From positions 7,393-71,392 of the forward strand of contig CAKZKT010000014.1 in assembly GCA_937124585.1 (NCBI GenBank): 64,000 bases of DNA, read 5' to 3'. The translations under genes were made by a program, and so were the position numbers. Shown here piece after piece: positions 19,931 to 35,581 of the stretch (position 1 is the first letter of the stretch; each line of letters starts with the position of its first letter). A model generated the notes under the pieces. It was not told the DNA's origin, made no database searches, and worked only from the letters and a program-made list of their open reading frames with translations. The DNA is from an uncultured Anaerolineae bacterium (GTDB lineage Bacteria > Chloroflexota > Anaerolineae > CG2-30-64-16).

Positions 19931-21860
19931 AACGACAGTAGCGCCCTATGGTTCGTGGAAATCGCCCATCACGGCCGACCTGATCGTCGCCGGCACGGTG
20001 GGGCTGAGCAACATCCTCGCCGACGGCGACGTGATCTACTGGATCGAATCTCGCCCCACCGAAGCCGGCCGCAATGTGATCGTCCGTTGCACGCCAGACG
20101 GCTGCCTGGCCGACATGACGCCGGCCGGCTTCAACGCGCGCACGCGCGTGCACGAATATGGCGGCGGCGACTATCTCGTCCACGGCGGCGCCCTCTTCTT
20201 CGCCAACTTCGCCGACCAGCGGCTCTATCGTCAGGACGACGCCGGCGCGCCGCGGCCGGTCACGCCCGAAGCCCCATTCCGATACGCGGACGCGGTGATA
20301 GACGCTGCACGCCATCGCCTGATCTGCATCCGGGAAGATCATACCCTGGCCGACCAGCAGGCCGTGAATGCCATCGTCGCCGTCGCAGGCGACGGTGACA
20401 CGGCGGGCGGTCAGGTGCTGGTGAGCGGGAACGACTTCTACGCCAGCCCGCGGTTCAGCCCGGACGGCACGCAGCTGGCCTGGCTGACCTGGAATCACCC
20501 GAACATGCCGTGGGATGGCTGCGAGCTGTGGGTTGCCACAGTGCAGGCAGACGGATCGCTGGCGTCGGCTACGCGGATTGCAGGCGGCGCCGACGAATCC
20601 ATCTTCCAGCCCGAATGGTCGCCGGACGGGGTGCTCCACTTCGTCTCCGACCGCAGCGGCTGGTGGAACCTCTACCGCTGGCAGGATGGCCGCGCCGAGC
20701 CGCTCTGCGCGATGGCCGCCGAGTTCGGCCTGCCGCAGTGGGTTTTCCGCCAGTCCACCTATGCGTTCGTGGCGGCCGATCGCATCGCCTGCGCGTACAC
20801 TCAGGCCGGGGCCTGGCGGCTGGCCATGCTGAACACGACGGCCAGGACCCTCACGCCGTTCGATCTGCCGTACACCGAGATCGGCAACGTGCGGGCGGTC
20901 GCCGGCCGCGTGGTGTTCACCGCGGCCTCTCCCGCACACGCGCCGGCGATCGTCAGCCTGGATCCGCTCACGGGCCGGTTTACTGTGCTGCGTCATTCGA
21001 GCGAGACGGCAGTGGATGCGGGCTATCTGTCTATGCCAGAGCCCATCGAGTTCCCGACCACAGGCGGGCTGACCGCGCATGCCTTCTACTACCCGCCCAC
21101 CAATCGGGACTACCGGGCGCCAGAGGGCGAGCGGCCGCCTTTGCTTGTTCTCAGCCACGGCGGCCCCACCGGCGCCACCTCGACGGCGCTGCGGCTGAGC
21201 CTCCAATATTGGACGAGCCGTGGCTTCGCGGTGGTGGATGTCAACTACGGCGGCAGCACCGGCTACGGCCGGGCCTATCGGGAACGGCTGAACGGTGGCT
21301 GGGGCGTCGTAGACGTGGATGATTGCGTCAACGCGGCGCGCTATCTGGCGGCGCGCGGCCTGGCCGATCCGCAGCGGCTGGCGATACGCGGTGGCAGCGC
21401 GGGCGGCTACACCACCCTCGCCGCGCTGACCTTCCGCGACATCTTCAAGGCAGGGGCCAGTCACTACGGCATCAGCGACCTGGAAACGCTGGACACCGAC
21501 ACCCACAAATTCGAATCGCGCTATCTCGACCGGCTCATCGGCCCCTATCCGGAGCGCCGCGACGTGTACATCGCGCGCTCGCCGATCCACTTCACCGACC
21601 GGCTGGCCACGCCGATCATTCTGCTGCAGGGCCTGGAGGACAAAGTGGTGCCGCCCAGCCAGGCCGAGACGATGTTCGCGGCCGTAAAAGCGAAGGGGCT
21701 GCCGGTGGCGTACGTGCCGTTCGCGGGCGAGCAACACGGCTTCCGCAGGGCCGAGAACATCAAGCGCGCGCTGGAAGCCGAGCTGTATTTCTACTCGCGC
21801 GTCTTCGGGTTCGCCCTGGCCGATGCGATCGAGCCGATCGAGATCGCCAACCTGGGCTGA
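19923..21860 (+). CDS. S9 prolyl oligopeptidase / acylaminoacyl peptidase
   Basis: [20 protein letters not shown] nucleophile elbow, [13 protein letters not shown]. Confidence 0.92.
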
Positions 21861-21871
21861 AAAGTCGTTCG

Positions 21872-22510
21872 ATGGAAGGGCCGATCACAGTCGCTGCTGC
21901 TCGCGCCCACTATGCCGGGGGTGACAGCCATAACTTTGACCATGTCCTGCGCGTGACCGCGCTGGCCGAGCGCATCGCGCGCGCCGAGGGCGCCGACCTG
22001 GTTGTGGTGCACACGGCTGCCCTATTGCACGATATCGGGGAAAGCCGAACGCGCGAGCACCACCACCAGATCGGCGCTGCGCTGGCACGCGAGCTGCTGC
22101 GCGATCAGCCGACAGGATTTGTGGCGGCTGTGACCCACGCCATCGAGGCGCACCGCTTCCGGACGCCGCCCGCTCCGCAGACGCTGGAGGCGCAGGTGGT
22201 GTTCGATGCGGACAAGCTGGACGCCCTCGGCGCCATCGGGGTGGCGCGGGCCTGCGCCTATGCCGGCGAGCGCGGCAATGCCCTCTGGAACACGCCCTGG
22301 CGCATCATCGCGACCGAAAACGGCGACGCGGTCAGCCGACCGGTAGCCCTCGGCGACGCGTACACGCCCGGCCATGAATTCGTCTACAAGCTCTCTCACA
22401 TCGCCGACCAGCTCTACACCGCCACAGCGCGCGCCATCGCTCGCGAACGCGCCGCGTTCATGCAAAGCTTCTTCGATCGCCTGGATCAAGAGGCGATGGG
22501 ACTGCTTTAA
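21872..22510 (+). CDS. HD-domain phosphohydrolase
   Basis: HNFDHVLRV, ALLHDIG, IEAHRF, VFDADKLDALGAIG. Confidence 0.88.
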   Translation: MEGPITVAAARAHYAGGDSHNFDHVLRVTALAERIARAEGADLVVVHTAALLHDIGESRTREHHHQIGAALARELLRDQPTGFVAAVTHAIEAHRFRTPPAPQTLEAQVVFDADKLDALGAIGVARACAYAGERGNALWNTPWRIIATENGDAVSRPVALGDAYTPGHEFVYKLSHIADQLYTATARAIARERAAFMQSFFDRLDQEAMGLL

Positions 22511-22525
22511 GGCGAAAGGCATCTG

Positions 22526-22614
22526 GCATGGGGGAGTTCAATCGCTATGACGCAGGTCATAACATACCGGATCCATTTCTCCTAAAGTAGTACCGCGCCT
22601 GTCAGGCCCCATGT
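22526..22614 (+). ncRNA. Probable yybP-ykoY (Mn2+) riboswitch
   Basis: P1 CATGGGG/CCCCATG, 5' GGGGAGTT, internal GTCATAACATAC and 3' GTCAGGCC resemble the conserved core. It lies in the leader of a P2A ATPase. Recognised by eye; no covariance model run. Confidence 0.65.
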
Positions 22615-22657
22615 GGCTCGCGGGCTCCAAGCCCTGGCAGAATGCAGGAGACTGCCC

Positions 22658-25555
22658 GTGAACGAACAAAAATCAAACATCACGCTCGAAACGATCACAT
22701 CCACACCCTGGCATCACCTCTCGATCGGCGACGCGCTTGACCTGCTGGATGTGCGTGAGGACCACGGCCTGAGCACGCAGGAGGCCCAAAAGCGTCTGGC
22801 CATTTTCGGCGCCAACGAGCTCAAGGAGGCTCCCCGGCCGACTTTCCTGCAGCGACTGCTCGATCAGTTCAAGGATTTTCTGATCCTGATCCTGATCGTG
22901 GCCAGCGTGATCTCGGTGCTCCTCGGCGACTACGTCGAGGCCGGCGCAATCATAGCGATCGTTCTCTTAAACGCCATCCTGGGTGTCGTCCAGGAATCGC
23001 GCGCCGAAGAGGCGCTGGCCGCCCTGAAAAAGATGACCGCACCCGAAGCGCAGGTCTTGCGCGACGGGCACCGACAGTCGGTGCCCGCGCGCGAGCTGGT
23101 GCCCGGCGACATCGTCTTCCTGGAGACCGGCAACTACGTTCCGGCCGATGTGCGGCTGATCGAGTCGGTCAACCTGAAGATCGAAGAGGCCAGTCTGACC
23201 GGTGAATCGGTCTCGGTGCAAAAACGCGCCGAACAGATCCTCGACCGAGAAGTGCCGCTGGGCGACCGGAAGAACAGCGCATTCAGCGGCACGACCGTCA
23301 CCTACGGCCGCGGCCGTGGGCTGGTCGTCGCCACCGGCATGCAGACGCAGATCGGCAAGATCGCCGACCTGATCCAAAGCTTCGAAAACGAGCCGACGCC
23401 GCTCCAGCACAAGCTCGACGGGCTCGGCCGCACGCTGGGCATTGCGGCGCTGGCGATCTGTGCGCTGGTGTTCGTCGTGGGCATGGTGCGCTTCACCCTT
23501 AATCCGATTCCCGGCGTCACCCTCGTCGAAGAGGCGCTGGAGTTCTTCATCGTGGCCGTCAGCCTGGCGATTGCAGCCGTGCCCGAAGGCCTGCCGGCAG
23601 TCGTCACCATCTGTCTGGCGCTCGGGATGCAGCGCATGGTCGCCCGACACGCGCTCCTGCGCCGCCTCCCCGCGGTCGAAGCGCTCGGCTCGGCCACCGT
23701 CATCTGCTCCGACAAGACCGGCACGCTGACCCAGAACGCCATGACCGTGGTGCAGGTCTATGCCGATGACACCCTCCTTTTCGTGACCGGCGAAGGCTAC
23801 ACGCCGCAGGGCGAATTCCTGGAGATCGAACGTCAGACCGAAAAGCCGGTTGAGGCGGCTCGCTATCCCGGCGTCAACCTGCTCCTGCGCGTTGGCCTCC
23901 TCTGCAATGACGCCAAGATCGAGCCGGATAGCACAGGCATGGCCCCGGATCCGTCGGGCAACGGCGCAGGCGGCAAGACGCGCTGGCGCATGGTGGGCGA
24001 TCCGACCGAAGGCGCGTTGGTGGTGGTTGCGGGCAAAGCCGGCTATTGGCGCGAAGAGGTCGAACGCGATCTGCCGCGCGCGGCCGAGATCCCGTTCGAC
24101 TCCGAACGCAAGCGCATGACCACGATCCACGACATGCGGAGCTCGCGCTTTTCCACGGAAAAAGCCCGCTGGGATCAGCTGCTGGGCGAGAACCGCTACC
24201 TGGCCCTGGTGAAAGGCGCGCCGGACCTCGTGCTGGGGCTATGCACCCACATCTACCGCGACGGCAAAGTGGTGCCGCTGACCGAAGAAGATCGCAGGGT
24301 GATTCTGGAGAGAAACGCGGCGCTCTCCTCCAACGCGCTGCGCGTCCTGGCGGGGGCCGTGCGGCCGCTGCCCCAAGTGTTGCAGGACGACGACCTGAAC
24401 CCCGCAGCAGTCGAGCGCGATCTGATCTTCGTCGGCCTGTGGGGCATGATTGACCCGGCGCGGCCGGAGGTCAAGCCCGCCATCGCGGTGGCGCGCACCG
24501 CCGGCATCCGCACCGTGATGATAACCGGCGACTATCCCAACACGGCCGAAGCCATCGCCCGCGAGATCAACCTGCTGCGGCCCGGCGGCGCCGTGGTCAC
24601 CGGCCACGAATTGGACGCCATGGACGACAAGACCATGAGCGAGGTAGCCCAAAAGGTAGATGTCTACGCGCGCGTCTCGCCGCAGCACAAGGTGCGCATC
24701 GTAGACGCCCTGAAATCGCACGGGCACATCGTGGCGATGACCGGCGATGGCGTGAACGACGCGCCGGCGCTCAAACGGGCTGACATCGGCGTGGCCATGG
24801 GGATCACCGGCACCGACGTCAGCAAAGAGACCGCGGCCATGGTGCTCACCGACGACAACTACGCCTCCATCGTCTCCGCGGTGGAAGAAGGCCGCATCAT
24901 CTATTCCAACATCCGCAAGTTCGTCTTCTTCCTCCTGTCGGCAAATGTGGGCGAGATCCTGATCATCTTCATCGCCACGCTGCTCGGCTGGCCATTGCCG
25001 TTGACCGCCATTCAGCTGCTGGTCCTCAATCTGATCACCGACGGCGCGCCGGCGCTGGCCCTGGGCCTGGAGAAAGGCGAGCCGGACATCATGAAGCGCG
25101 CACCGCGCCATCCCGATGAGCCGGTGATTGATTCGACCATGCGGTTGCGCATCCTCATCCAGGGCATTGTAGATACGATCGTTGTGCTGACCGCGTTCCG
25201 CATCGGCCTGAACTGGTATCCGGAGAACGTTCATCACGCGCAGACGATCGCGTTTGCCGTCCTGTCCATTTCCGAGCTGTTCCGCGCCTATTCTGCACGC
25301 TCCGAGTATCACTCGATCCTGCGGGTCGGCGTCTTCACGAACAAGTACATGCAGTATGCAGTGCTCAGTTCACTCGTGACCCTGCTGGCAATCATCTATG
25401 TTCCATTCCTGGATCCGATCTTCGACACAGCTTTTCTGAGCCTGAGGGATTGGCTCGTTGTGCTGCCGCTTCTCTTCGTGCCGCTGATTGCGGCCGAAGC
25501 CACCAAAATCATCACCCGCCGCAGGGTGGAAATGGCCCGCCCTGTAGTCGCATAA
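22658..25555 (+). CDS. P-type (P2A, Ca2+/Mn2+-type) cation-transporting ATPase
   Basis: [46 protein letters not shown] start after SD CAGGAG. Confidence 0.95.
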
Positions 25556-25594
25556 CGAAGTCGCCAGGGGCAGCAGACCAGAGGAGGATTCTCG

Positions 25595-26059
25595 ATGAGT
25601 GAACTCACGGTACAACGCGGGCGGTTCTTCGAGGAGTTCACGGTCGGCGATAGCGTGACGACGGCCGGCCGCACGATCACCGAGGCGGATGTGATCAACT
25701 TCGCCGCGCTCAGCGGCGACTGGAACTCAATTCACGTGGACGCCGAATATGCCAAAGGCACGCTGTTCGGCCAGCGCGTGGCGCACGGCCTGCTGGGACT
25801 ATCGGCCGCATCCGGCCTGGCCGTGCGCACCGGTTTCATCGAAGGCACCGTGATCGCCTTCCGAGAGATCGGCGAGTGGAAATTCAGCCGGCCGATCTTC
25901 ATCGGCGACACCATTCACGTGCGCGCCACGGTGACCGAGACGAAGCCGATCCCCCGCCTGGGCGGCGGCAGCGTCTCCTTCAACGTCGAGGTCGTGAACC
26001 AAAACGGCCAGGTCGTCCAGCATGGAACGTGGACGATGCTGGTGAAAAGCAAAGCGTAA
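25595..26059 (+). CDS. MaoC-family dehydratase
   Basis: RTITEADVINFAALSGDWNSIHVD, VAHGLL, PIFIGDT. Confidence 0.9.
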   Translation: MSELTVQRGRFFEEFTVGDSVTTAGRTITEADVINFAALSGDWNSIHVDAEYAKGTLFGQRVAHGLLGLSAASGLAVRTGFIEGTVIAFREIGEWKFSRPIFIGDTIHVRATVTETKPIPRLGGGSVSFNVEVVNQNGQVVQHGTWTMLVKSKA

Positions 26060-26070
26060 AGCCTGACCCG

Positions 26071-26134
26071 AAAATCGCCGTGCCCACAGGCCAGGCACTC
26101 GACAAGATGCCTGGCACGTAGGCACGGCAATTTT
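26071..26134. repeat. REP-like palindrome with an extended outer stem, between convergent genes
   Basis: aaaatcGCCGTGCC...GCCAGGCA-ctcgacaaga-TGCCTGGC...GGCACGGCaatttt. Confidence 0.75.
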
Positions 26135-26200
26135 CACGACATATTGTGCGCCGATTGGCGCATGAACGACCGAAACGGGATGCGTCAGGCGTTTCACGCG

Positions 26201-27568
26201 TCACGCGGCGCTCATCACCTTCCCTCGCTTCACCACCGTGCGCACCAGGTTTGTCCCGAATCGGTACGCCAACATGCGATAATCGTCCGCGTCGAGGAGC
26301 AGCAGATCGGCCAGCTTGCCCACCTCCAGGCTGCCGATCTGCTCGCCCAGGCCGATGGCACAGGCGGCATTGAGGGTGGCAGCCGTCAGCGCCTCGGCAG
26401 GCAGCAGGCGCATGGTGCGACAGGCCAACGCGAGGATGAACTGCATGTTCTCGCACCAACAAGTGCCCGGATTCAGGTCGGTAGCCAGCGCCAGCGCGCC
26501 GCCCTGGTCAATCAGGCTGCGGGCCGGACTGTAATCGCGCTGGCCCAGGCCAAACGGCGTGCCGGGCAGCGCCACTCCGATCGTGTTCGAGCGCGCCAAT
26601 CGTGTGACGTGTTCGGCCGGCGTCGTCACGATGTGATCGGCCGAGATCGCGGCCAGCTCGATCGCCAGCAATGCGCCGCCCAGCGACGCGAATTCATCCA
26701 CGTGGATCTTCAGGCCGAACCCCAGCTGCCGCGCCGCGGTCAGGATGCGCCGGGCTTGCGCCAGATCGAACGCGCCGGCCTCGCAGAACACGTCACAGAA
26801 AATCGCGTTCCACGCGCGGCGGTCGGCCTCCCGAACGTCCTGACCGATCGCCCCGGCCGGCTGCACCTCGCCCGTCGCCCGACTGATCTGCGACCATGGC
26901 CGCAAAGACGATGAGCCGATCCGCTGCCAATGCGCCCAGGCCGCCGGCAACAATTCCTCGACGATCAGATCCACATAAGCTTCTGTGCGGCCCTGATATT
27001 CCGGCGGAACCGCGTGCGCGGCAAGGAAAGTGGGCACGAGATCCACGGGATGGGCCCGCCGCAGTTCGGCAATCGCATCCAGCTGCTTCAGTTCATCCGA
27101 CAGGTTCAGGCCATAACCGGTCTTGGCTTCGGCCGTTGTCGTGCCATGCGCCAGCATCCGGTCGAGCCGGCCGCGCGTCTCGACCACCAGCGTCGCGAGC
27201 GAAGCTGCGCGCGTATCAGCCACGGTGCGCGCGATGCCGCCGCCGGCTGCCATGATCTGCATGTAGGTGGCGCCGCCGATGCGCATCTCGAACTCGGCCG
27301 CGCGGTGGCCGACCCATGGCAGATGGGTGTGCGGATCCACGAAGCCGGGGATCACGGCACAGCCGCCGGCATTCAGCGTTGCAGTAGGCTGAATCGTCGC
27401 AGCCAGCGCATCGCTCTTGCCCACTGCGATGATCCGGTCATCGGCCACAGCCAGCGCCGCATCGGTGATCAGCCCCAGCTCGCGCATGGCGGCCCCGCGC
27501 CGCGGGCCCGGAGGCCCGGCCAGCGTCGCCAGCTGGCCGATATTGTAGATGAGAAGATCGGCGCGCAT
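26201..27568 (-). CDS. hutI: Imidazolonepropionase
   Basis: PGFVDPHTH, GGGIARTV, HGTTTAEAKTGYGL, FCDVFCE, KIHVDE, SADH, ATDLNPG; SD GAGGAG precedes the ATG at 27568. Confidence 0.93.
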   Translation of the reverse strand: MRADLLIYNIGQLATLAGPPGPRRGAAMRELGLITDAALAVADDRIIAVGKSDALAATIQPTATLNAGGCAVIPGFVDPHTHLPWVGHRAAEFEMRIGGATYMQIMAAGGGIARTVADTRAASLATLVVETRGRLDRMLAHGTTTAEAKTGYGLNLSDELKQLDAIAELRRAHPVDLVPTFLAAHAVPPEYQGRTEAYVDLIVEELLPAAWAHWQRIGSSSLRPWSQISRATGEVQPAGAIGQDVREADRRAWNAIFCDVFCEAGAFDLAQARRILTAARQLGFGLKIHVDEFASLGGALLAIELAAISADHIVTTPAEHVTRLARSNTIGVALPGTPFGLGQRDYSPARSLIDQGGALALATDLNPGTCWCENMQFILALACRTMRLLPAEALTAATLNAACAIGLGEQIGSLEVGKLADLLLLDADDYRMLAYRFGTNLVRTVVKRGKVMSAA

Positions 27569-27600
27569 CAGGCACGACTCCTCGCGGTCATCCTCCGCCT

Positions 27601-29871
27601 TCACAACGCATGTTCGGTGCGGGCAATGATCTCTTCCTGCATCTGCGGGCTGAGCTTGACGAAATAGTCCGAATAGCCGGCCACGCGCACCAACAGGTCG
27701 CGATACTGTTCGGGATGCTCGCGCGCGGCCAGCAGCGTCTCGCGGCTGACCACATTCACCTGCATCTCGAAGCCGCCGCGACGCAGATAGGTCTCGATCA
27801 GCTGGCGCAGGATGGCCCGTTCCTGATCGGTCTTGAACAGGCGCCGCGAGAACTTCGCGTTGTGCACCAGGCCGCCGAGCGCCGGCCGGTGCGACCATTT
27901 GGTCGTGGAGAGCACCGAGGCGGTCGGGCCGCGTCGCTCGCGGCCCTGGGCGGCGCCGGCACCGTCGGCCAGCGGCCAGAACGCGCGACGGCCGTCGGGC
28001 GTGGCGCCGGTCTGACTGCCCATCCGCTCATGCATCACCCAGCAGAAAAAGCCCGGCACGTAGCGATGCGGGCCGACGGTCTGGGCCTCGGTCATCTCGA
28101 TCAGATAGCCGGCCCAGCGCCGGGCCACATCGTCCGCCTCATCGTCGTCATTGCCGTATTTGGGCAGCCGGTTCATGATGCGCTGCCGCAACGCCGCGTG
28201 CCCAGCCCAATCGGCCTCCAGGATAGCGGCGAACTCGGCCAGGGTCAGGCTGCGCTCCTCGTACACCAGTCGCCGCACGGCCACCAGGCTGTCGGCCAGA
28301 TTCGCCAGGCCGACAAAGGAGTTTTCGACCCAGTTGTAGCGCGCACCGCCCCGGTCGAAATCCAGGCCGCGCGGCAGGCAGTCGGCCGTGAAGCAGCTGG
28401 CGAGCGGGAACCCACCGTGCACCGCGCGCTGATGCCACACATGATCCAACGACGCGGCGGCTGCCGTCACTTGCGCGGCCAGGCGCGCCCGCACCTGTTC
28501 CTCCAAATCGGCGAACGTCTCCGGCTGGGGCTGCTCGCCGCGGCCGACGGCATTCATCACGTCCAGCAGGCCCTGCACGACGTTGAAATACGGCGCAGTG
28601 ACCCAGATGTTGGACGCGCCGACCGGCTTGATCTCCACACAGGTGGAGTTCATGTAATTCACAGCATCCTCGGGCCGCACACCGTGATCCAGCAACCCGG
28701 CCACGATCAGCTCGTCGTTGAAAAAGGCCGGATCTCCTCGGCCGAAAACCAACATCTGCACCGCAAAATCCATCAGCTCGGCTGGCGTCGCGCGGTGCCA
28801 GCAGAGGCCGACGGTGGGGTAGCCCAGCCCGGTGACCACGCGTGCGGCCAGGCACAGGTAGGTCAGATCATTGGTCACATCGTTGCCTGCCGCATCACGG
28901 CCACCGACCAGCACTGCCAGGGCCAGGCCGGTAGGCATGATCCGGTTAACCAGGATGAAAAGCGACACGATCAACTCGAAGGCAGCCTGTGGGGTGAGGC
29001 GCCCCGCGGCCAGATCGGCCTCGTAGAAGGGCCGCAAGGTGCGATCGAGCCGGCCCGGCGAGGTCAGGTAATGGCCCTCGCCCTGCCAGAGCGCCACCAG
29101 CGTCAGAAAAAGCAGCTGAATCGCCTCGTGAAAAGTGCGCGGCGGTTCGCTCGCCACGTGGCGGCACATCGCCGCCAGCTCCTGCCACCGCCTCTGTTCG
29201 CCGTCGCTATGGCCGGTCTCCGACCGGGCTACAGCAGCTGCAGTCAGAGGCCGGGCTGAGCTGTCCACAGGGGATGCCTCCGCCATGGCCGCGCAGGCGT
29301 CGGCCACGCGGCCGATGTACGCGGCCAGCCCAGCGAGGACGATCTGACAGGCGTCGTAGAAGGCCGTGCGATCGGCATCGCGGATCATGACGCGGCGGTA
29401 CGCAGCGATCTCTTCGCGAAGGCCACGCACGCCCAGCCGAAATAGCTTGTCGTAATCAGGGTGCAGGTGGCCGGCGTCGCCGCCGGGAAAAGGCGGAACG
29501 GTGGCCAGGACCTGCTGCGCGGCAGCCAGCGCCGCCTGTTCGTCGGCAGTGGGCCGGCGAAAACGCGGCCGGCCGACGATTCGCTCGCCGGGCGCCAGCT
29601 CGATGGGCATCGCCCGCAGCCGCGCCGCGCACAGCTGCGCCCGCCAGATCAGCCAGTCCTCGTTCTCCGTGCGTGCGGTCCATGCGGCCGCGTCGCTGAG
29701 CACAAGCTCGGGGATGGGCGGCATCTCTGTGCCGATGCGCTGATGGAAGTCGCGCGCAGCGGCGGCCAGCGCGTTCAGATCCGCCGGCAGCCGCATGGAG
29801 AGAGGCGCTGCCAATCCGGGAACAGTCAGATACTCGGGCAAATCGGGCGGAAAATTCGGTGCAGATGGCAT
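27601..29871 (-). CDS. Glycyl radical enzyme (PFL2-like, single-Cys, substrate unknown)
   Basis: C-terminal LLVRVAGYSDYF glycyl loop, Cys loop NSTCVE, PKYGNDDDEAD, GATPDGR, QVNVV. Confidence 0.9.
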   Translation of the reverse strand: MPSAPNFPPDLPEYLTVPGLAAPLSMRLPADLNALAAAARDFHQRIGTEMPPIPELVLSDAAAWTARTENEDWLIWRAQLCAARLRAMPIELAPGERIVGRPRFRRPTADEQAALAAAQQVLATVPPFPGGDAGHLHPDYDKLFRLGVRGLREEIAAYRRVMIRDADRTAFYDACQIVLAGLAAYIGRVADACAAMAEASPVDSSARPLTAAAVARSETGHSDGEQRRWQELAAMCRHVASEPPRTFHEAIQLLFLTLVALWQGEGHYLTSPGRLDRTLRPFYEADLAAGRLTPQAAFELIVSLFILVNRIMPTGLALAVLVGGRDAAGNDVTNDLTYLCLAARVVTGLGYPTVGLCWHRATPAELMDFAVQMLVFGRGDPAFFNDELIVAGLLDHGVRPEDAVNYMNSTCVEIKPVGASNIWVTAPYFNVVQGLLDVMNAVGRGEQPQPETFADLEEQVRARLAAQVTAAAASLDHVWHQRAVHGGFPLASCFTADCLPRGLDFDRGGARYNWVENSFVGLANLADSLVAVRRLVYEERSLTLAEFAAILEADWAGHAALRQRIMNRLPKYGNDDDEADDVARRWAGYLIEMTEAQTVGPHRYVPGFFCWVMHERMGSQTGATPDGRRAFWPLADGAGAAQGRERRGPTASVLSTTKWSHRPALGGLVHNAKFSRRLFKTDQERAILRQLIETYLRRGGFEMQVNVVSRETLLAAREHPEQYRDLLVRVAGYSDYFVKLSPQMQEEIIARTEHAL

Positions 29872-29925
29872 TGGCTTTCTCCGGGCGAAACGGACACAAC
29901 CGGAGCGAAACGTGATGACATGGCG

Positions 29926-30918
29926 CTATACGCCGATACCGCGGCTGTAGAGGAAAAACATCCCGATCAGATAGCCCGCCATGATGATCAGCGCGTCTAC
30001 TTCGACGAAGCCGAGCCGACGTTCGACGCGCGCCAGATTGCCCAGCAGCCCCAGGCCGGTGAGGATCAGCCCGAGCAGGCCAACCAAGGCGAATTCCGGT
30101 GTGATCACGCCGAAGAAGCGGCCTTCCAGATAAAAGGCATCGGTCAGGCCGAGCGCGAGCATGTTGAACGCATTGCTGCCGAAGAGATTGCCGACCGCCA
30201 TGTCGTAGGCGCCGATGCGCACCGCCGCGATCGAAGTCGCCACCTCTGGCAACGAAGTGACGACCCCCACCAGAGCTGTGCCGATAAAACCGGTGCTCAG
30301 GCCGGTGATCTGGGCGATCTCCTTGCTGCTGCGCACCAGCCATGGAGAAACGACGATCAACAGCGCTGTCGCGGCTGCGAAACCGGTCAACGCCCAGACC
30401 AGGCTCAGCTCCTCCGTTATTGCTCCCACATCAGAGTGCGTCTCGGCTCTGGCCTGGTTGTTGGCATGGATCAAACGCAGCCCTGCGATGTACACCGCAC
30501 CGATGCACAGGCTGTCCAGCCCAAACCAGCCAATGCAGAGCTTCACGTCGGCCAATATGAAAAAGACGGCCAGGCCGCTGAGCAGGATGGCCAGGCCTGC
30601 GGTCAAGGCATGGCGCATTGCCACGCGGCGCAGGATACGTGCCTGGCGTCCCACCAGGTCGAGCACGCCGAGCAGGAACATGTTGAACATGTTGCTGCCC
30701 ATGAAATTGCCGACCGCCAGATCGGGCACCCCCAGGCTCAGCGCATTGATCGAGGTGAGCAGCTCTGGCAGCGACGTTGCGGCGGCAAGCAGCAACGTGC
30801 CGACGAAGAGCCGGCCCAGTCCGGTGCGCGCGGCGATGATGTCGCCGAACTGGGCGAGCTTCATCGCTGCGAACACCAGGAGGACCGAAGAACCGATAAA
30901 GATCAGCCAGACCATCAT
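29926..30918 (-). CDS. Na+/Ca2+ (CaCA family) antiporter
   Basis: Two alpha repeats: AATSLPEL...GNFMGSN and VTSLPEV...GNLFGSN. Confidence 0.9.
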   Translation of the reverse strand: MMVWLIFIGSSVLLVFAAMKLAQFGDIIAARTGLGRLFVGTLLLAAATSLPELLTSINALSLGVPDLAVGNFMGSNMFNMFLLGVLDLVGRQARILRRVAMRHALTAGLAILLSGLAVFFILADVKLCIGWFGLDSLCIGAVYIAGLRLIHANNQARAETHSDVGAITEELSLVWALTGFAAATALLIVVSPWLVRSSKEIAQITGLSTGFIGTALVGVVTSLPEVATSIAAVRIGAYDMAVGNLFGSNAFNMLALGLTDAFYLEGRFFGVITPEFALVGLLGLILTGLGLLGNLARVERRLGFVEVDALIIMAGYLIGMFFLYSRGIGV

Positions 30919-31274
30919 CGCCCCCTGGCCGCACGCAGATCAGCCGGCACACCCTTGACCAGAGCCAACGGCCAGGCAGCCAAAACCCCCGTATTTGGGC
31001 CATCGAGATCGCCCAGGATGCCCTCCACAGCAGCCAGGCACTGGCGGGCTGTCGCCTCATCGGGCACGATGGCAAACAGGGTGAAATTGCCGAACTCGTT
31101 GGTCGCGCCGCCGACAAAAGCATAGCGCGCATGGACCTGACGGCGAGCAAGCCGCTGGCGGAAGATCCCTGTGCTCTCGACGATGGTCGCGCCGCTGATG
31201 CCGATCGCCGTCCACGCGTCTATCACCGCAGCCAACCGGGCGGGATCATCCAGGACAAACATCACCATATACAT
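30915..31274 (-). CDS. PII-like (GlnB-fold) protein
   Basis: GISGATIVESTG...TLFAIV...GDLDGPNTGVLAAWP pattern; ATGA overlap with the antiporter. Confidence 0.65.
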   Translation of the reverse strand: MYMVMFVLDDPARLAAVIDAWTAIGISGATIVESTGIFRQRLARRQVHARYAFVGGATNEFGNFTLFAIVPDEATARQCLAAVEGILGDLDGPNTGVLAAWPLALVKGVPADLRAARGR

Positions 31275-31323
31275 CGCCATCCCTCCTGGCAGCGTCGACC
31301 TATTCCTCCGGTCGGCACTGCTT

Positions 31324-32034
31324 CTACAAGTACTCGGTGCGCGCGGCTTCCAGAACGAAAACGGTCGCGCTGTACATCGGCATCCCCTCAGTCGCGGGCC
31401 GCGCCTCGGAGCGCAGCCGACAGTTCGCCTGCATTATCTGGAGCACATCGTCCACCTTCTCCGGCTCAACGCCGATCAGCAAAGTAACGTTACCGCGACG
31501 CAAGAAACCGCCGGCCGTGCTCAGGCGGGTCAACCGATAGCCTGCCGCCAACAGTGCGCTCGACACCGGATCGGCATCCTCGCTGGTCACAATCGCTATA
31601 ATCAAGTTCATGGCCCCTCCCCTGTTTTGTGAGATGGTTGCCATCGGCGCAGGATGAAATGGATAATGTTGATCTGCCTGCGGTGGCGCGGAACCGCCCT
31701 GGAGGCGCAGGAAGCGCGTGACCGGCAGGCCGAACACGATTGCGCCGCCAATCTGCACTTCGAGAGGCATGATGACCGGCAGTGCGGCGGCGACAGCCTC
31801 CACCGGCGGCACCGCGTTGATGAAGGTGGTGCGGGTGTGACAGACCGAGCGCATAATCGCCAGGACGGACTCGATCCGCCTCTCCTCCACGCCGATCAGA
31901 ACGGTGGCATTGCCGCGCATCAGGAAGCTGCCCACCGAGTTGATGCGCGTCACACGATAATCCTGGGCGATAAGTCGTTCGATCAGGAGATCTGCATCTT
32001 CTGCCTGGACAATGGCGAGAAGCAGGTACATCAT
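31324..32034 (-). CDS. darA: Tandem two-domain DarA/PstA (DUF970) c-di-AMP receptor
   Basis: Domain 1: LAIVQAED...GSFLMRGNATVLIGV...VQIGGAIVF. Domain 2: IAIVTSED...GGFLRRGNVTLLIGV...ATVFVL. Internal SD and ATG at 31611. Confidence 0.85.
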   Translation of the reverse strand: MMYLLLAIVQAEDADLLIERLIAQDYRVTRINSVGSFLMRGNATVLIGVEERRIESVLAIMRSVCHTRTTFINAVPPVEAVAAALPVIMPLEVQIGGAIVFGLPVTRFLRLQGGSAPPQADQHYPFHPAPMATISQNRGGAMNLIIAIVTSEDADPVSSALLAAGYRLTRLSTAGGFLRRGNVTLLIGVEPEKVDDVLQIMQANCRLRSEARPATEGMPMYSATVFVLEAARTEYL

Positions 32035-32116
32035 CAAACTAACCTCCCCGGGGTGGCTGGCTGCATGGGAAGGCGCCGCCTCATCCTGGGCCGCACCATG
32101 AAGCGTCATCGCGCGC

Positions 32117-32146
32117 ATTGTAACATGTCCGATGAGGCGGCTCCAA
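32117..32146 (-). promoter_or_regulatory. Promoter of the darA-PII-CaCA unit
   Basis: Minus strand TTGGAG-N18-TACAAT with extended TG. Confidence 0.5.
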
Positions 32147-32225
32147 ATATGGTATTTTCGTGGCGTAGCGCCCCTGTGGCCTGCACGCGGCGGTAGAGAC
32201 GTTGCATGCAACGTCTCTACAAGCC

Positions 32226-33482
32226 CTATCGGTTGCTCTCATCCACCGCCCGCATCAGCGCCTCACCGTGCTGCAACAACAATTTCGCGCGTTCCTCAGG
32301 CACGCCCTTCGTCTCCAGGTATTTCGCCAGCAGCTCAACCGGCGCGAGCGCCTCCACCGAGACCGCGCCGAGGCGGATGCGGTCGGGACGCTCCATTTCC
32401 TTCTGCAGCGCGGCCACGAAGTACGCGGCCTCCAGCGCCCGGAAGATCTCGCGTTCGACCAGAAGCGATTCCTGCTCCTGGCGCAGGGTCACGATCACAC
32501 GCACGACCGCTTCTGCGAGCTCTGGCTTCGACCGGATGGCCTTCACCACCTCCGCAGTGGGTTCTGTCGCATCGCGCACGTCGGCCTTCACGGTCACAAA
32601 CGGCCGCGCCTGGCGCCGGTAGCCGCGCTCGAACCGCCAGGTCGTCAGCTCGTCCGAGATCTCGGCCACGACGAAGCCCTTGGGGTCGTCTTCCTCGCTG
32701 AAATCAATCCGCTCGATGCTGCCGCTGTAGACGATGGGTGGCTGCAAGTCGCCGTTGAGGCTCTGGTGCTTGTGGATATGGCCCAACGCGACGTAGCGCC
32801 AGGCCGGGTCGGCCAGCACCGCGCGCGGGATCGCCGCGTCGCGGCCGATCATGATGTTCTTCTCCGACCCGTGGGCAGCCTCGTTGACGCTGAAGTGGCC
32901 GACGAGAATGGCCGGCACCTCCGGCCGTTGCCTGGCCTGCGTCGCCAACGCCCGGATGTTCTCGATCATGGCGTTCTGCAACAGCGCGTCCAGCTCGGCC
33001 AGGCTCTTGCCCTGCGTCTGTTCCCGACTCACCAGCGCGCTGCGCAGCGGATAGGGAACCGTCGCCACCTGCAGCGACTGCCCGCGGCGGCAGACGATCT
33101 GGTGGATCTCCTCGCGATTGCCCACGATGACGTTGGGCACGTCCAGCGTGCCGAAGATGTCAATGCTGGTGGCCCGCCTGGCAACCGCGGGCAGATCGTG
33201 GTTGCCGACGAGCAGGATCACCGGGATACCGGCGTCCGCGATGCGCTTGATGCGCCGGGCGAACTCGCGCTGGTAGGTGGAGTTGGGGTCGCGCGTCTTG
33301 TACGCGTCGCCGGCGAAGACGAACACATCCACGCCCTGCTCGATGGCGTAATCGCCGACGTCGCTCAGGCGACGCAGGAAGTCCATGACGCGACCGTTGA
33401 TCCCGGTGGCCGGGTCAATCCGGCCGTAGTTTTCCATGCCGATGTGGATGTCGGCAGTGTGCAGGAGCTTAATCGGTGGCAT
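32226..33482 (-). CDS. sbcD: SbcD/Mre11 nuclease
   Basis: LLHTADIHIG, FAGDAY, LVGNHD, VGHF, YVALGHIH, YSGS...DFSEE. Confidence 0.92.
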   Translation of the reverse strand: MPPIKLLHTADIHIGMENYGRIDPATGINGRVMDFLRRLSDVGDYAIEQGVDVFVFAGDAYKTRDPNSTYQREFARRIKRIADAGIPVILLVGNHDLPAVARRATSIDIFGTLDVPNVIVGNREEIHQIVCRRGQSLQVATVPYPLRSALVSREQTQGKSLAELDALLQNAMIENIRALATQARQRPEVPAILVGHFSVNEAAHGSEKNIMIGRDAAIPRAVLADPAWRYVALGHIHKHQSLNGDLQPPIVYSGSIERIDFSEEDDPKGFVVAEISDELTTWRFERGYRRQARPFVTVKADVRDATEPTAEVVKAIRSKPELAEAVVRVIVTLRQEQESLLVEREIFRALEAAYFVAALQKEMERPDRIRLGAVSVEALAPVELLAKYLETKGVPEERAKLLLQHGEALMRAVDESNR

Positions 33483-33497
33483 AGATATCTGTTCCCC

Positions 33498-33763
33498 CTA
33501 CACCAACCACTCGATGGCGATCAAATGCCGGACCTGGCGAAATTCGGGATCGCCGGTAAGAAGGGTCGCGTCCATTCCCTGAGCCAACGCGACCGCAAAG
33601 GCATCCGCGCAGGAGAGCGCATACTAGGCCTTCACATGCGCGGCGGCGAAGGTCAGCTGCCGGTCGGCGTCAATCACGACGATCGGCAGCTAGTCCACGG
33701 CAGCGATGACGCGACGGGCTGCTGGTCCACGGCAGCAATGACGCGACGGGCTGCAGTCCCCAT
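33498..33763 (-). pseudogene. vapC: Decayed VapC (PIN) toxin, C-terminal half only
   Basis: Manual translation: AARRVIAAVD*LPIVVIDADRQLTFAAAHVKA*YALSCADAFAVALAQGMDATLLTGDPEFRQVRHLIAIEWLV*. Two internal TAG codons and a frameshifting 32-bp duplication. Confidence 0.85.
33690..33753. repeat. 32-bp direct tandem duplication
   Basis: 33690-33721 and 33722-33753 match at 30 of 32 positions. Confidence 0.9.
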
Positions 33764-33800
33764 CTCCTTGTCTCCTTGTTTCCTTGCTTCCTCACTTCCC
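33763..33800. repeat. Degenerate 8-mer tandem repeat
   Basis: tctccttg tctccttg tttccttg cttcctca cttccc. Confidence 0.7.
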
Positions 33801-33802
33801 CC

Positions 33803-35581
33803 TCAATCAAACCCCTCAAACTCCTTCGGCGGGCGCATGGCGGCGACGTTGTCGTTCAGCCGACGGTTGAGCTCAGCTGCGTCGGCGAAGCCCATGGCTT
33901 TGTAGAAGGCGGTGTCGTAGCGCCGCGTCTGCACCACGACCGGCATGGGGACCGCGTGGCCCAGGATAAGGGCCTGCTCGCGGGTGTCGAGGCGGGCCAG
34001 CACCTCGCGCAGCCCCTCGCCGCCGCTGACGCCGGAGAGCACGGCCTTGATGTCATCCGGGTTGTCCAGCAGCATGGTGACGCGCGTGCCGATCTGCGAC
34101 ATGACCTCGCCGTCAATGCCGGAGGGCCGCTGATCCACGATGAACAACGTGACGTTGTACTTGCGCAGCTCGCGCGCGATGGTGCCGAAGATGGTGTTGG
34201 CGGCGATGGCCGGGTCCAGGAACTTGTGCGCCTCCTCGATGGTGATCACCAGCGGGGTCGGCTCCTGGCCGGCCGCGCCGAAAGACGCCTCTTTGCGCTC
34301 GACGTACAAACGATGGATGCGTCGGGTCAGGAAGTTGGCCACCAGGATGTACGCGCCCAGGTCCGAGCCGTAGCGGCCGAACTCCAGCACGACGCTGGTG
34401 CCCGCCTCCAGATACCGCATGATCCGGCCCACCGAGTCGTCCAGCGCCTTGGGCCGGAGAAAGCCGTAGTTGCGCATGCGCTCGAAACGGCGACGCAGCG
34501 CGGCCAGGGTGTTCTGGCCCTGGCCGGTGTCGTCGGCCAGCGCCTTGAGGCCGGAAACCTCCTTGCCCGTGTCCGGGTCGAAGCCGCCGTACGCGTCCAC
34601 CCACTCGTCGTTCAGGAAGTTGGCCAGCCACGCCTTGCCGAACTTGCGAAAAAGCGCGTACACCGCGCCGATCTGCGGCTCCGACAGGTTCAGGATGCCC
34701 GCCAGCATCTCCAGGTCCTCGGGCTCGATCTGATCGTAGCCGATGGTCACGGTGTAATCGGGGTCCGAGCCGCGGCGGCGGGAAGAGTCGGGGTCCAGGG
34801 TGAAGATGCTGACCTGGCCGGGGAAGATCTGCTTCAAGCCCTTGACCTGGCCGCCCAGGTCCTCGCTGGAGCCGGCCCAGCCGTACTCGTTGTGCATGTC
34901 GAAGATCAGGTTGACCGCAACCCGATGCTTGATGACGCCCGCCAGGAGCAGCCGCGAGAGGAACGTCTTGCCTGTGCCCGACTTGCCGAAGACGCCGCTG
35001 GAGCGCTCCACCAGCCGCTCCAGGCTCAGGGTGATCTTCACGTTCTCCATGTCCAGTGGCTGTCCGATGTGGAAAAAATGGGCCGTCTTGCCGCCGATCC
35101 TCCGCTCCCCCTCCGGCCCGAAAACCTGATCCACCTCGGCCTGGCTGGCGGTGTAGACCGGCGTGAAATGGGCCGGCACGGTCTTCACCGGCTTCACCTC
35201 GCCAGCTTCCTCCATGATCAGGAGCGGGCTGAGGTGCACCGTGCCGAAGGTAGCCGTGCCCTGGTACACCGCGGCCAGGAACGGATCGGACATGTCGGGC
35301 GGCTGCTTGGCGATGAGGGGGTTGGTGCTGTCCAGCGCCACGTCGGTGATCATGCAGAAGAACCTGGCCTGGCGTCCCCGTGCCACAACATAACGCCCCA
35401 CTGCGAGCGCTTCCAGGGACACATCGCGGTCCAACTTGACCGCCAGCCCCTCGCTCAACGAGCCGCCGATGACCACGCCCAGGCGGTCGGCGTGCTCGCG
35501 GGCCGCGGCCAGGGCGGCGCGCTCCTCGGTGGCGGAGATGAGCGCGTCCCAAGCAGCATCGCCTGAATCTAAACCGGTCAT
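33803..35581 (-). CDS. herA: HerA-family ATPase/helicase
   Basis: N-terminal HAS barrel (VVIGGSLSEGL), Walker A GKSGTGKT, IFDMHNEY, Walker B IEEAH, RELRKY, VDQRPS, R-finger ARL. The ATG at 35581 overlaps the abiEii stop (ATGA). Confidence 0.9.
   Translation of the reverse strand: MTGLDSGDAAWDALISATEERAALAAAREHADRLGVVIGGSLSEGLAVKLDRDVSLEALAVGRYVVARGRQARFFCMITDVALDSTNPLIAKQPPDMSDPFLAAVYQGTATFGTVHLSPLLIMEEAGEVKPVKTVPAHFTPVYTASQAEVDQVFGPEGERRIGGKTAHFFHIGQPLDMENVKITLSLERLVERSSGVFGKSGTGKTFLSRLLLAGVIKHRVAVNLIFDMHNEYGWAGSSEDLGGQVKGLKQIFPGQVSIFTLDPDSSRRRGSDPDYTVTIGYDQIEPEDLEMLAGILNLSEPQIGAVYALFRKFGKAWLANFLNDEWVDAYGGFDPDTGKEVSGLKALADDTGQGQNTLAALRRRFERMRNYGFLRPKALDDSVGRIMRYLEAGTSVVLEFGRYGSDLGAYILVANFLTRRIHRLYVERKEASFGAAGQEPTPLVITIEEAHKFLDPAIAANTIFGTIARELRKYNVTLFIVDQRPSGIDGEVMSQIGTRVTMLLDNPDDIKAVLSGVSGGEGLREVLARLDTREQALILGHAVPMPVVVQTRRYDTAFYKAMGFADAAELNRRLNDNVAAMRPPKEFEGFD

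Follow-up and report, generated by a model that had tools for sequence, protein, structure and literature searches.

To our knowledge, each newly assigned clade of glycyl radical enzymes (GREs) has so far given a new anaerobic reaction, for instance the cleavage of choline, hydroxyproline, isethionate and anhydro-sugars. The subject of this study is a GRE gene that lies beside hutI, the gene for imidazolonepropionase, in a stretch of 64,000 nucleotides (the window) from the genome of an uncultured Anaerolineae bacterium (assembly GCA_937124585.1, contig CAKZKT010000014.1). The solved structures closest to its product in sequence are those of YbiW, glycerol dehydratase, propanediol dehydratase and CutC, with E values of about 1e-85 to 1e-82. 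In the characterized GREs with a C-x-E cysteine loop, a thiyl radical abstracts hydrogen beside a hydroxyl, the glutamate deprotonates that hydroxyl, and cleavage of a C-O, C-N or C-S bond follows (PMC13450708, sections 5.6-5.7).

We consider it fairly probable that the window gene encodes a working C-x-E GRE of an uncharacterized clade, referred to here by its cysteine loop as the STCVE clade, that this enzyme is activated in trans and acts on a carbohydrate-derived substrate, and that its position next to hutI is incidental. The interval 26201-29871, as delimited in the initial annotation, holds two genes rather than one, each with its open reading frame (ORF) on the minus strand. The two genes, and the parts of the GRE on which the comparison depends, are as follows.

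27601-29871, minus strand: GRE gene, 756 aa, uncharacterized STCVE clade (ORF, Pfam, TIGR01774, AlphaFold2 model, ratio of nonsynonymous to synonymous substitution rates)
26201-27565, minus strand: hutI (imidazolonepropionase), 454 aa, a conserved-backbone gene apparently without functional tie to the GRE (TIGR01224)
27670-27687, minus strand: glycine loop RVAGYS, residues 729-734, with Gly732 as the presumed radical site (ORF translation, Pfam Gly_radical)
28633-28647, minus strand: cysteine loop STCVE, residues 409-413, with presumed catalytic Cys411 and Glu413 in C-x-E arrangement (alignment with glycerol dehydratase and YbiW)
28027-28056, minus strand: clade-specific barrel strand PGFFCWVMHE, residues 606-615, in place of PGLYPSSINV of glycerol dehydratase, the region of its Y640 (alignment)
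29206-29271, minus strand: 22-residue insertion, residues 201-222, a gap in most of 120 homologs, with a predicted local distance difference test score (pLDDT) below 50 at residues 206-222

Motifs, fold and classification

The initial annotation had described an intact glycine loop and a single-cysteine loop that departs from the usual GCVE, and all three points hold: RVAGYS is found at residues 729-734, where it conforms to the superfamily pattern RVxG[FWY], STCVE is found at residues 409-413, and YbiW, glycerol dehydratase, propanediol dehydratase and CutC have Gly-Cys at the position where this protein has Thr-Cys. In Pfam terms the protein combines PFL-like (E 6.5e-97) with Gly_radical, which spans residues 635-738 (E 1.3e-28). 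Cys411 aligns with C433 of glycerol dehydratase and with the Cys-loop cysteine of YbiW within a full-length fold match, as required of the catalytic cysteine, which sits on a finger loop in the middle of a 10-stranded barrel, and C411-V412-E413, which is invariant in the clade, places the protein among the C-x-E GREs.

An AlphaFold2 model built on 30 relatives reached a pLDDT of 84.7 and a predicted template modeling (TM) score of 0.89. When compared with solved eliminases and isomerases of the GRE superfamily it gave TM scores of 0.81-0.85 at 21-27% identity, with none outstanding, so the modeled protein has a complete GRE fold that is roughly equidistant from every characterized eliminase and isomerase. 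The insertion at residues 201-222, which is modeled with low confidence, is probably a surface loop.

YbiW is the best sequence match among the solved structures (E 7e-85), with a TM score of 0.85, and, with PflD, represents the C-O lyases of 1,5-anhydroglucitol-6-phosphate and 1,5-anhydromannitol-6-phosphate (PDB 8ID7, 8ID0, 8YJO). It shares with the window GRE a C-x-E cysteine loop (gCiE in YbiW), the RVAGYS glycine loop and a threonine at Cys+14, as well as a sugar-related context, which is probably also that of the window GRE family. However, the identity is only about 26%, the window GRE is some 55-70 residues shorter and divergent over its first 110 residues, a threonine takes the place of the glycine that precedes the catalytic cysteine in YbiW, and the GFFCW..HE strand occurs only in its own family. 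In Escherichia coli, YbiW and PflD are each encoded next to an activase, YbiY and PflC respectively.

The best NCBIfam match is the broad model TIGR01774 (PFL2/glycerol dehydratase subfamily), on which the protein scores 416 bits against a cut-off of 678 in a match that begins at residue 110. None of the equivalog models (HypD, CutC, HpsG/HpfG including sulfopropanediol dehydratase, PflD-type, the indoleacetate and 4-hydroxyphenylacetate decarboxylases, and PFL) was reached: listed from highest to lowest, the scores are 308, 296, 291, 291, 279, 215, 197 and 97 bits, whereas the cut-offs lie at 994-1150. The proposal of an uncharacterized GRE subclass, put forward in the initial annotation, is therefore borne out, as TIGR01774 and all equivalogs stay below cut-off and the solved structures are all equally distant. 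The protein might instead have grouped with a characterized GRE while retaining all of that enzyme's substrate residues; this is not so, with several pocket residues of glycerol dehydratase replaced and no equivalog cut-off reached. As judged from its sequence, the window enzyme fits no characterized GRE.

The STCVE clade

A protein search for relatives returned more than 100 clusters at 57-79% identity, mostly of 720-740 aa, from Chloroflexi, Planctomycetes, Lentisphaerae, Armatimonadetes, Poribacteria and other metagenome-assembled genomes. Where these relatives carry a name at all, it is hypothetical protein or PFL family, and our literature searches on GREs turned up no paper describing the clade. 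A scan of one genome per species identified 182 genomes with a relative carrying the clade motifs, in more than 10 phyla; the proteins of the clade are about 725-735 aa long. The interest of the clade lies in this size and spread among environmental bacteria, in its high conservation and in its distinctive presumed pocket.

An alignment of 30 diverse members, including the window GRE, has about 190 invariant columns, the glycine and cysteine loops among them. N408-K415 (NSTCVEIK) is invariant throughout, as is L726-F737 (with the glycine loop VRVAGYSDYF) except for V730, which is kept in at least 90% of rows. Invariance also extends to P606, G607, F608, F609, C610, W611, H614 and E615 of the clade-specific strand. 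The threonine before the catalytic cysteine, likewise invariant in the 30 aligned relatives, is present in 69 of the 86 ORFs of the GRE cluster from 80 fetched loci, a cluster that includes second, unrelated GREs. Against three orthologs the ratio of nonsynonymous to synonymous substitution rates (dN/dS) is 0.17-0.19, and by this measure the gene is under purifying selection.

The activase and activation in trans

The initial annotation had found no radical-SAM activase gene in the 64 kb, and there is none on the whole 72.9-kb contig that holds the window (C14) either. Six-frame profile searches of all contigs of the assembly (164 contigs, 4.83 Mb, 99.8% completeness) gave 35 matches to the Radical_SAM family PF04055, none of them on C14, and the activase model TIGR02494 found on that contig only ferredoxin-like matches of 25 and 17 bits, against a cut-off of 174. 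In the genome as a whole TIGR02494 has one true match, of 347 bits (C102:60122-61018), the next best reaching 28 bits. This sole GRE activase gene (C102:60098-61099) adjoins a different GRE. An activase is thus available, non-adjacent to the window GRE, on which it would act from another contig.

Three genes in the genome carry Gly_radical: the window GRE, C44:14589-17312 and C102:57776-60094. The C44 enzyme qualifies as a HypD equivalog, with 1306 bits where 1100 are required. Like the window GRE it has no adjoining activase, and the two have an identical glycine-loop core, VRVAGYSDYF. HypD (trans-4-hydroxy-L-proline dehydratase, PDB 6VXC) belongs to the same C-x-E class, but the window GRE scores only 296 bits on the HypD equivalog with its cut-off of 1100, and is 38% identical to the HypD of its own genome. 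The C102 enzyme, which the activase directly adjoins, is very divergent, with a YSGCHW cysteine loop that lacks C-x-E, an RVTGFSA glycine loop and just 242 bits on TIGR01774. Overall, the three GREs share 35-38% identity.

A similar arrangement recurs in other genomes. In a related genus, G404, G418, G427 and G430 have one activase each, together with three GREs in G418, G427 and G430 and two in G404; in G404, G418 and G427 the activase adjoins the C102-type GRE, and the G418 assembly has 30 contigs. A GRE activase is encoded somewhere in 59 of 61 genomes that have a clade member (13/13 relatives and 46/48 from other phyla), and many of these hosts have only one. Nevertheless, among 80 family loci drawn from species-representative genomes, only 10 have an activase within 10 kb of the clade member. 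These activase-linked loci lie mostly on basal branches, with cysteine loops of the form [NH]STCVEITP and intact glycine loops, R[VI][AG]GY[ST]DYF, although one crown member, P0054, also has an activase directly upstream. Because the basal members and P0054 have an adjacent activase, the family can be regarded as a true activase client, and within the crown clade that holds the window GRE this linkage seems to have disappeared.

Since the sole activase of the genome lies on another contig, and activases are near-universal in the hosts yet rarely linked to the clade member, activation in trans, as initially supposed, is the best reading of these gene distributions. The C102 activase would install the radical on Gly732, and may also serve the HypD-type GRE on C44. 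A precedent for one activase with several clients in trans exists in E. coli, where PflA serves PflB, TdcE and GrcA (PMC13450708, section 2.5). These clients are, however, close paralogs that share an RVSGYAV loop, whereas the proteins considered here have 35-38% identity and RVTGFSA versus RVAGYSD.

Several points weigh against activation by the C102 enzyme. Activase specificity is tied to the sequence of the glycine loop, and cross-activation is rare and occurs mainly between near-identical clients (PMC13450708, section 2.5). In this genome the neighbor of the activase has RVTGFSA, whereas both GREs that lack an adjacent activase have RVAGYSD. Finally, the 164-contig assembly could hide another activase in one of its gaps. 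The last point leads to the alternative that the GRE has an activase of its own which was missed, either in such a gap or as a non-canonical radical-SAM protein outside the GRE-activase model. The number of contigs, the 35 radical-SAM genes of the genome and the glycine-loop specificity of known activases all leave room for it. We nonetheless regard it as unlikely, given the 99.8% completeness, the four related genomes with a single activase, including G418 with three GREs in 30 contigs, and the many genomes of other phyla whose only activase is far from the clade member.

Most clade members have no adjacent activase, and the ratio of one activase to three GREs in these Anaerolineae offers a system in which activase specificity could be gauged, a matter named as an open question in a 2026 review. 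A LacI-type regulator and ABC transporter genes lie near the C102 GRE and its activase.

Relationship to known eliminases and possible substrate

Glycerol dehydratase (1R8W) and 1,2-propanediol dehydratase (5I2G, 9RCO) are the top fold matches of the model (TM 0.84-0.85) at 25-27% identity. In a HMMER alignment C433/E435, H164 and H281 of glycerol dehydratase correspond to C411/E413, H135 and H267 of the window GRE. Yet D447 is replaced by T425, Y339 by A317, Y640 by F609 and S282 by Y268, the last being Gly in most relatives. The diol-binding residues of glycerol dehydratase are H164, H281, S282, Y339, D447 and Y640; only H164 and H281 are kept. Furthermore, no aldehyde-handling or microcompartment genes lie nearby, and the family neighborhoods showed neither aldehyde dehydrogenase nor microcompartment genes.

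These comparisons bear on the possibility that the enzyme is isofunctional with a known one, for instance as a divergent form of 1,2-propanediol dehydratase or glycerol dehydratase, or as an anhydro-sugar-phosphate lyase of the YbiW/PflD type. Such enzymes are the best matches in both sequence and fold, the C-x-E motif and two histidines are shared with glycerol dehydratase, and fucosidase and sugar genes occur near some relatives. However, every equivalog model stays below one third of its cut-off, four of the diol-binding residues are replaced, the GFFCW..HE strand at the presumed pocket is both unique to the clade and invariant in it, and the neighborhoods lack the aldehyde dehydrogenase and microcompartment genes just mentioned. 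We therefore judge isofunctionality improbable.

What can be proposed for the STCVE enzyme is a reaction of the general C-x-E type. Because all characterized C-x-E GREs act in this way, a thiyl radical on Cys411 would, by analogy, abstract hydrogen from a hydroxyl-bearing carbon, and Glu413 would then deprotonate that hydroxyl. A neighboring C-O or other C-heteroatom bond might then break, by elimination or ring opening, before hydrogen is returned from Cys411 in the last step. The exchange of D447, Y339 and Y640 for T425, A317 and F609 tells against carrying the analogy too far: with several pocket residues replaced, a plain comparison with the diol dehydratases is weak.

The initial annotation had suggested a substrate derived either from histidine or imidazole or from a sugar, and it is the second part that fits the neighborhoods of the relatives. 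Sulfatases, uroporphyrinogen decarboxylase (URO-D)-like proteins, short-chain dehydrogenases/reductases (SDRs) and GFO/IDH/MocA oxidoreductases are the commonest neighbors, at 10 loci each, followed more rarely by D-2-hydroxyacid dehydrogenases, NAD-epimerase-like proteins, large HZS_alpha/FGE-sulfatase proteins and GH2-like hydrolases. In many loci of Planctomycetota, Lentisphaerae and Poribacteria, the genes immediately after the GRE encode an epimerase-like protein and an SDR. The most operon-like arrangements belong to the activase-linked basal members, with the gene orders GRE-IclR-activase-UxuA-SDR, FGGY kinase-activase/GRE/two GFO-IDH-MocA, and GH42-activase-GRE. Around the relative P0011 (71% identity) there are genes for fucosidase, GH3, aldo-keto reductase, sugar isomerase-like and URO-D proteins. 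Because genes of these sugar types occur near relatives, a carbohydrate-derived substrate seems most likely, in preference to a histidine derivative.

Several considerations count against this assignment. No neighbor family occurs in more than 10 of the 80 loci, so there is no universal operon partner; the sugar-type neighbors belong to common families, and their counts are raw, without a background comparison; and the window itself holds no clue to the substrate. A more far-reaching proposal is that the STCVE clade carries out a radical cleavage new for GREs on a glycan-derived sugar, a sugar acid or a sulfated or methylated sugar, and that in these Anaerolineae one broad activase serves three GREs of 35-38% identity with different glycine loops. 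We put this forward tentatively, as a possibility that we would not favor. If true, a broad activase for three GREs with differing glycine loops would contradict the view of activases as tuned to one glycine loop.

Some loci have further GREs. At L056, L059, L061, L062, L066, L068 and L079 (Lentisphaerae, Planctomycetota and Armatimonadetes) the clade member is immediately preceded by another GRE, with no activase in the locus. In the tree, the preceding GREs of L056, L061, L062 and L066 fall in a different clade, nearer HypD. L059 (P0051) has the order GRE-GRE-epimerase-SDR between sulfatase and FGE-sulfatase genes.

Several URO-D-like paralogs surround clade members on the P0011 contig (JGI 3300075153) and at L054, L105 and L127, with a B12-binding protein in one case. 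The content of these clusters suggests corrinoid-dependent methyl transfer, possibly sugar demethylation, at those loci.

The hutI neighbor and locus structure

The remaining features of the locus are listed below.

27566-27600, minus strand: GRE-hutI spacer, 35 nt, in which GAGGAG precedes the hutI ATG by 9 nt (sequence and terminator scan)
29872-29925, minus strand: spacer between antiporter stop and GRE start, 54 nt, with GGAGAA 5 nt before the GRE ATG (sequence)
29926-30918, minus strand: CaCA (Na+/Ca2+) antiporter gene, the upstream neighbor of the GRE (Pfam Na_Ca_ex)
26071-26134, no strand assigned: hairpin-forming palindrome in the gap where hutI and MaoC converge (z -7.3 at a fold energy of -82 kcal/mol)

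The identity of the neighbor as HutI is clear, its protein scoring 432 bits on TIGR01224 against an equivalog cut-off of 298. The terminator scan found no terminator-like site in the 35-nt gap between the GRE and hutI. With both genes on the same strand and a strong hairpin after hutI, likely the 3' end of the transcription unit, co-transcription of the two is plausible from the sequence. The promoter scan found no promoter-like site on the minus strand of 29872-29925; neither the promoter nor the terminator scan gave counts above those of shuffled sequence, and the terminator-free gap is their only informative point. A scan of 20000-34000 with Rfam found no riboswitch before the GRE, and its sole match, to a miRNA hairpin at the palindrome downstream of hutI, fell below threshold.

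A rival view joins the GRE and hutI into a single pathway in which the GRE would act on a histidine- or imidazole-derived compound up- or downstream of imidazolonepropionase. Their close, terminator-free spacing on one strand would suit such a link, as would the conservation of the pair in G403, G416 and the P0008 contig as well as in the window, four genomes in all, which shows that homologs do co-occur with hutI. This co-occurrence is, however, confined to one small Anaerolineales clade within a monophyletic Chloroflexi branch of the tree, and since all linked GREs belong to it, the pairing counts as a single event. Across the family, hutI adjoins the clade member in just 2 of the 80 loci, leaving 78 without it, and a GRE-hutI module in independent lineages was not found.

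Gene order in close relatives points the same way. G401, of the same genus, has the same succession of genes (GT2, LPG synthase, S9 peptidase, P-type ATPase, MaoC converging on hutI, CaCA antiporter, DarA) but no GRE; there the stop codon of the antiporter gene overlaps the start of hutI (GTATGATGAAG). In G338, also of this genus, hutI keeps its flanking synteny and again lacks the GRE, and the antiporter is deleted save for a short 3' remnant before hutI (L132, G338:C287, 2845-2905). The two genes are on different contigs in G418, with hutI at its backbone position on C4 and the GRE on C7 beside a URO-D-like gene. These three genomes thus have hutI orthologs with no neighboring GRE. Moreover, hutU of the window genome lies on contig C55 and not on C14, so the hut genes are scattered in any case. 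The pathway hypothesis is largely refuted by this distribution, and we consider it very improbable. Neither a functional link to hutI nor a histidine- or imidazole-derived substrate is supported, and in annotation the neighboring hutI gives no basis for inferring the function of the GRE.

Comparison of these gene orders indicates that the backbone is conserved and the GRE a variable insertion into it, which spans about 2.36 kb from the antiporter stop to the start of hutI, and that the GRE came to lie beside hutI apparently by one gene-order event in one Anaerolineales subgroup. The GRE and hutI may share a transcript, but would not share a pathway. The GRE is patchy in its own bacterial family, being absent from both G401 and G338, and occurs in 3 of 401 sampled genomes of its phylum. 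That it is never activated here, as a relic or a protein with a non-radical role, would accord with this patchiness and with the lack of an adjacent activase, but is highly unlikely in view of the dN/dS of 0.17-0.19, the roughly 190 invariant columns in 30 sequences with both loops included, and the activase kept in 59 of 61 host genomes.

Two other readings of the locus were rejected. The interval has a length not divisible by three, and its two long ORFs overlap, as in a frameshifted single gene, but the overlap is a spurious out-of-frame 5' extension of the hutI frame. A recent transfer island is not indicated either, the G+C content at 26-30 kb (0.665) matching the rest of the window. In G401 the antiporter gene (L133, G401:C56, 9127-10112) was matched in two reading frames, consistent with a frameshift or an assembly error.

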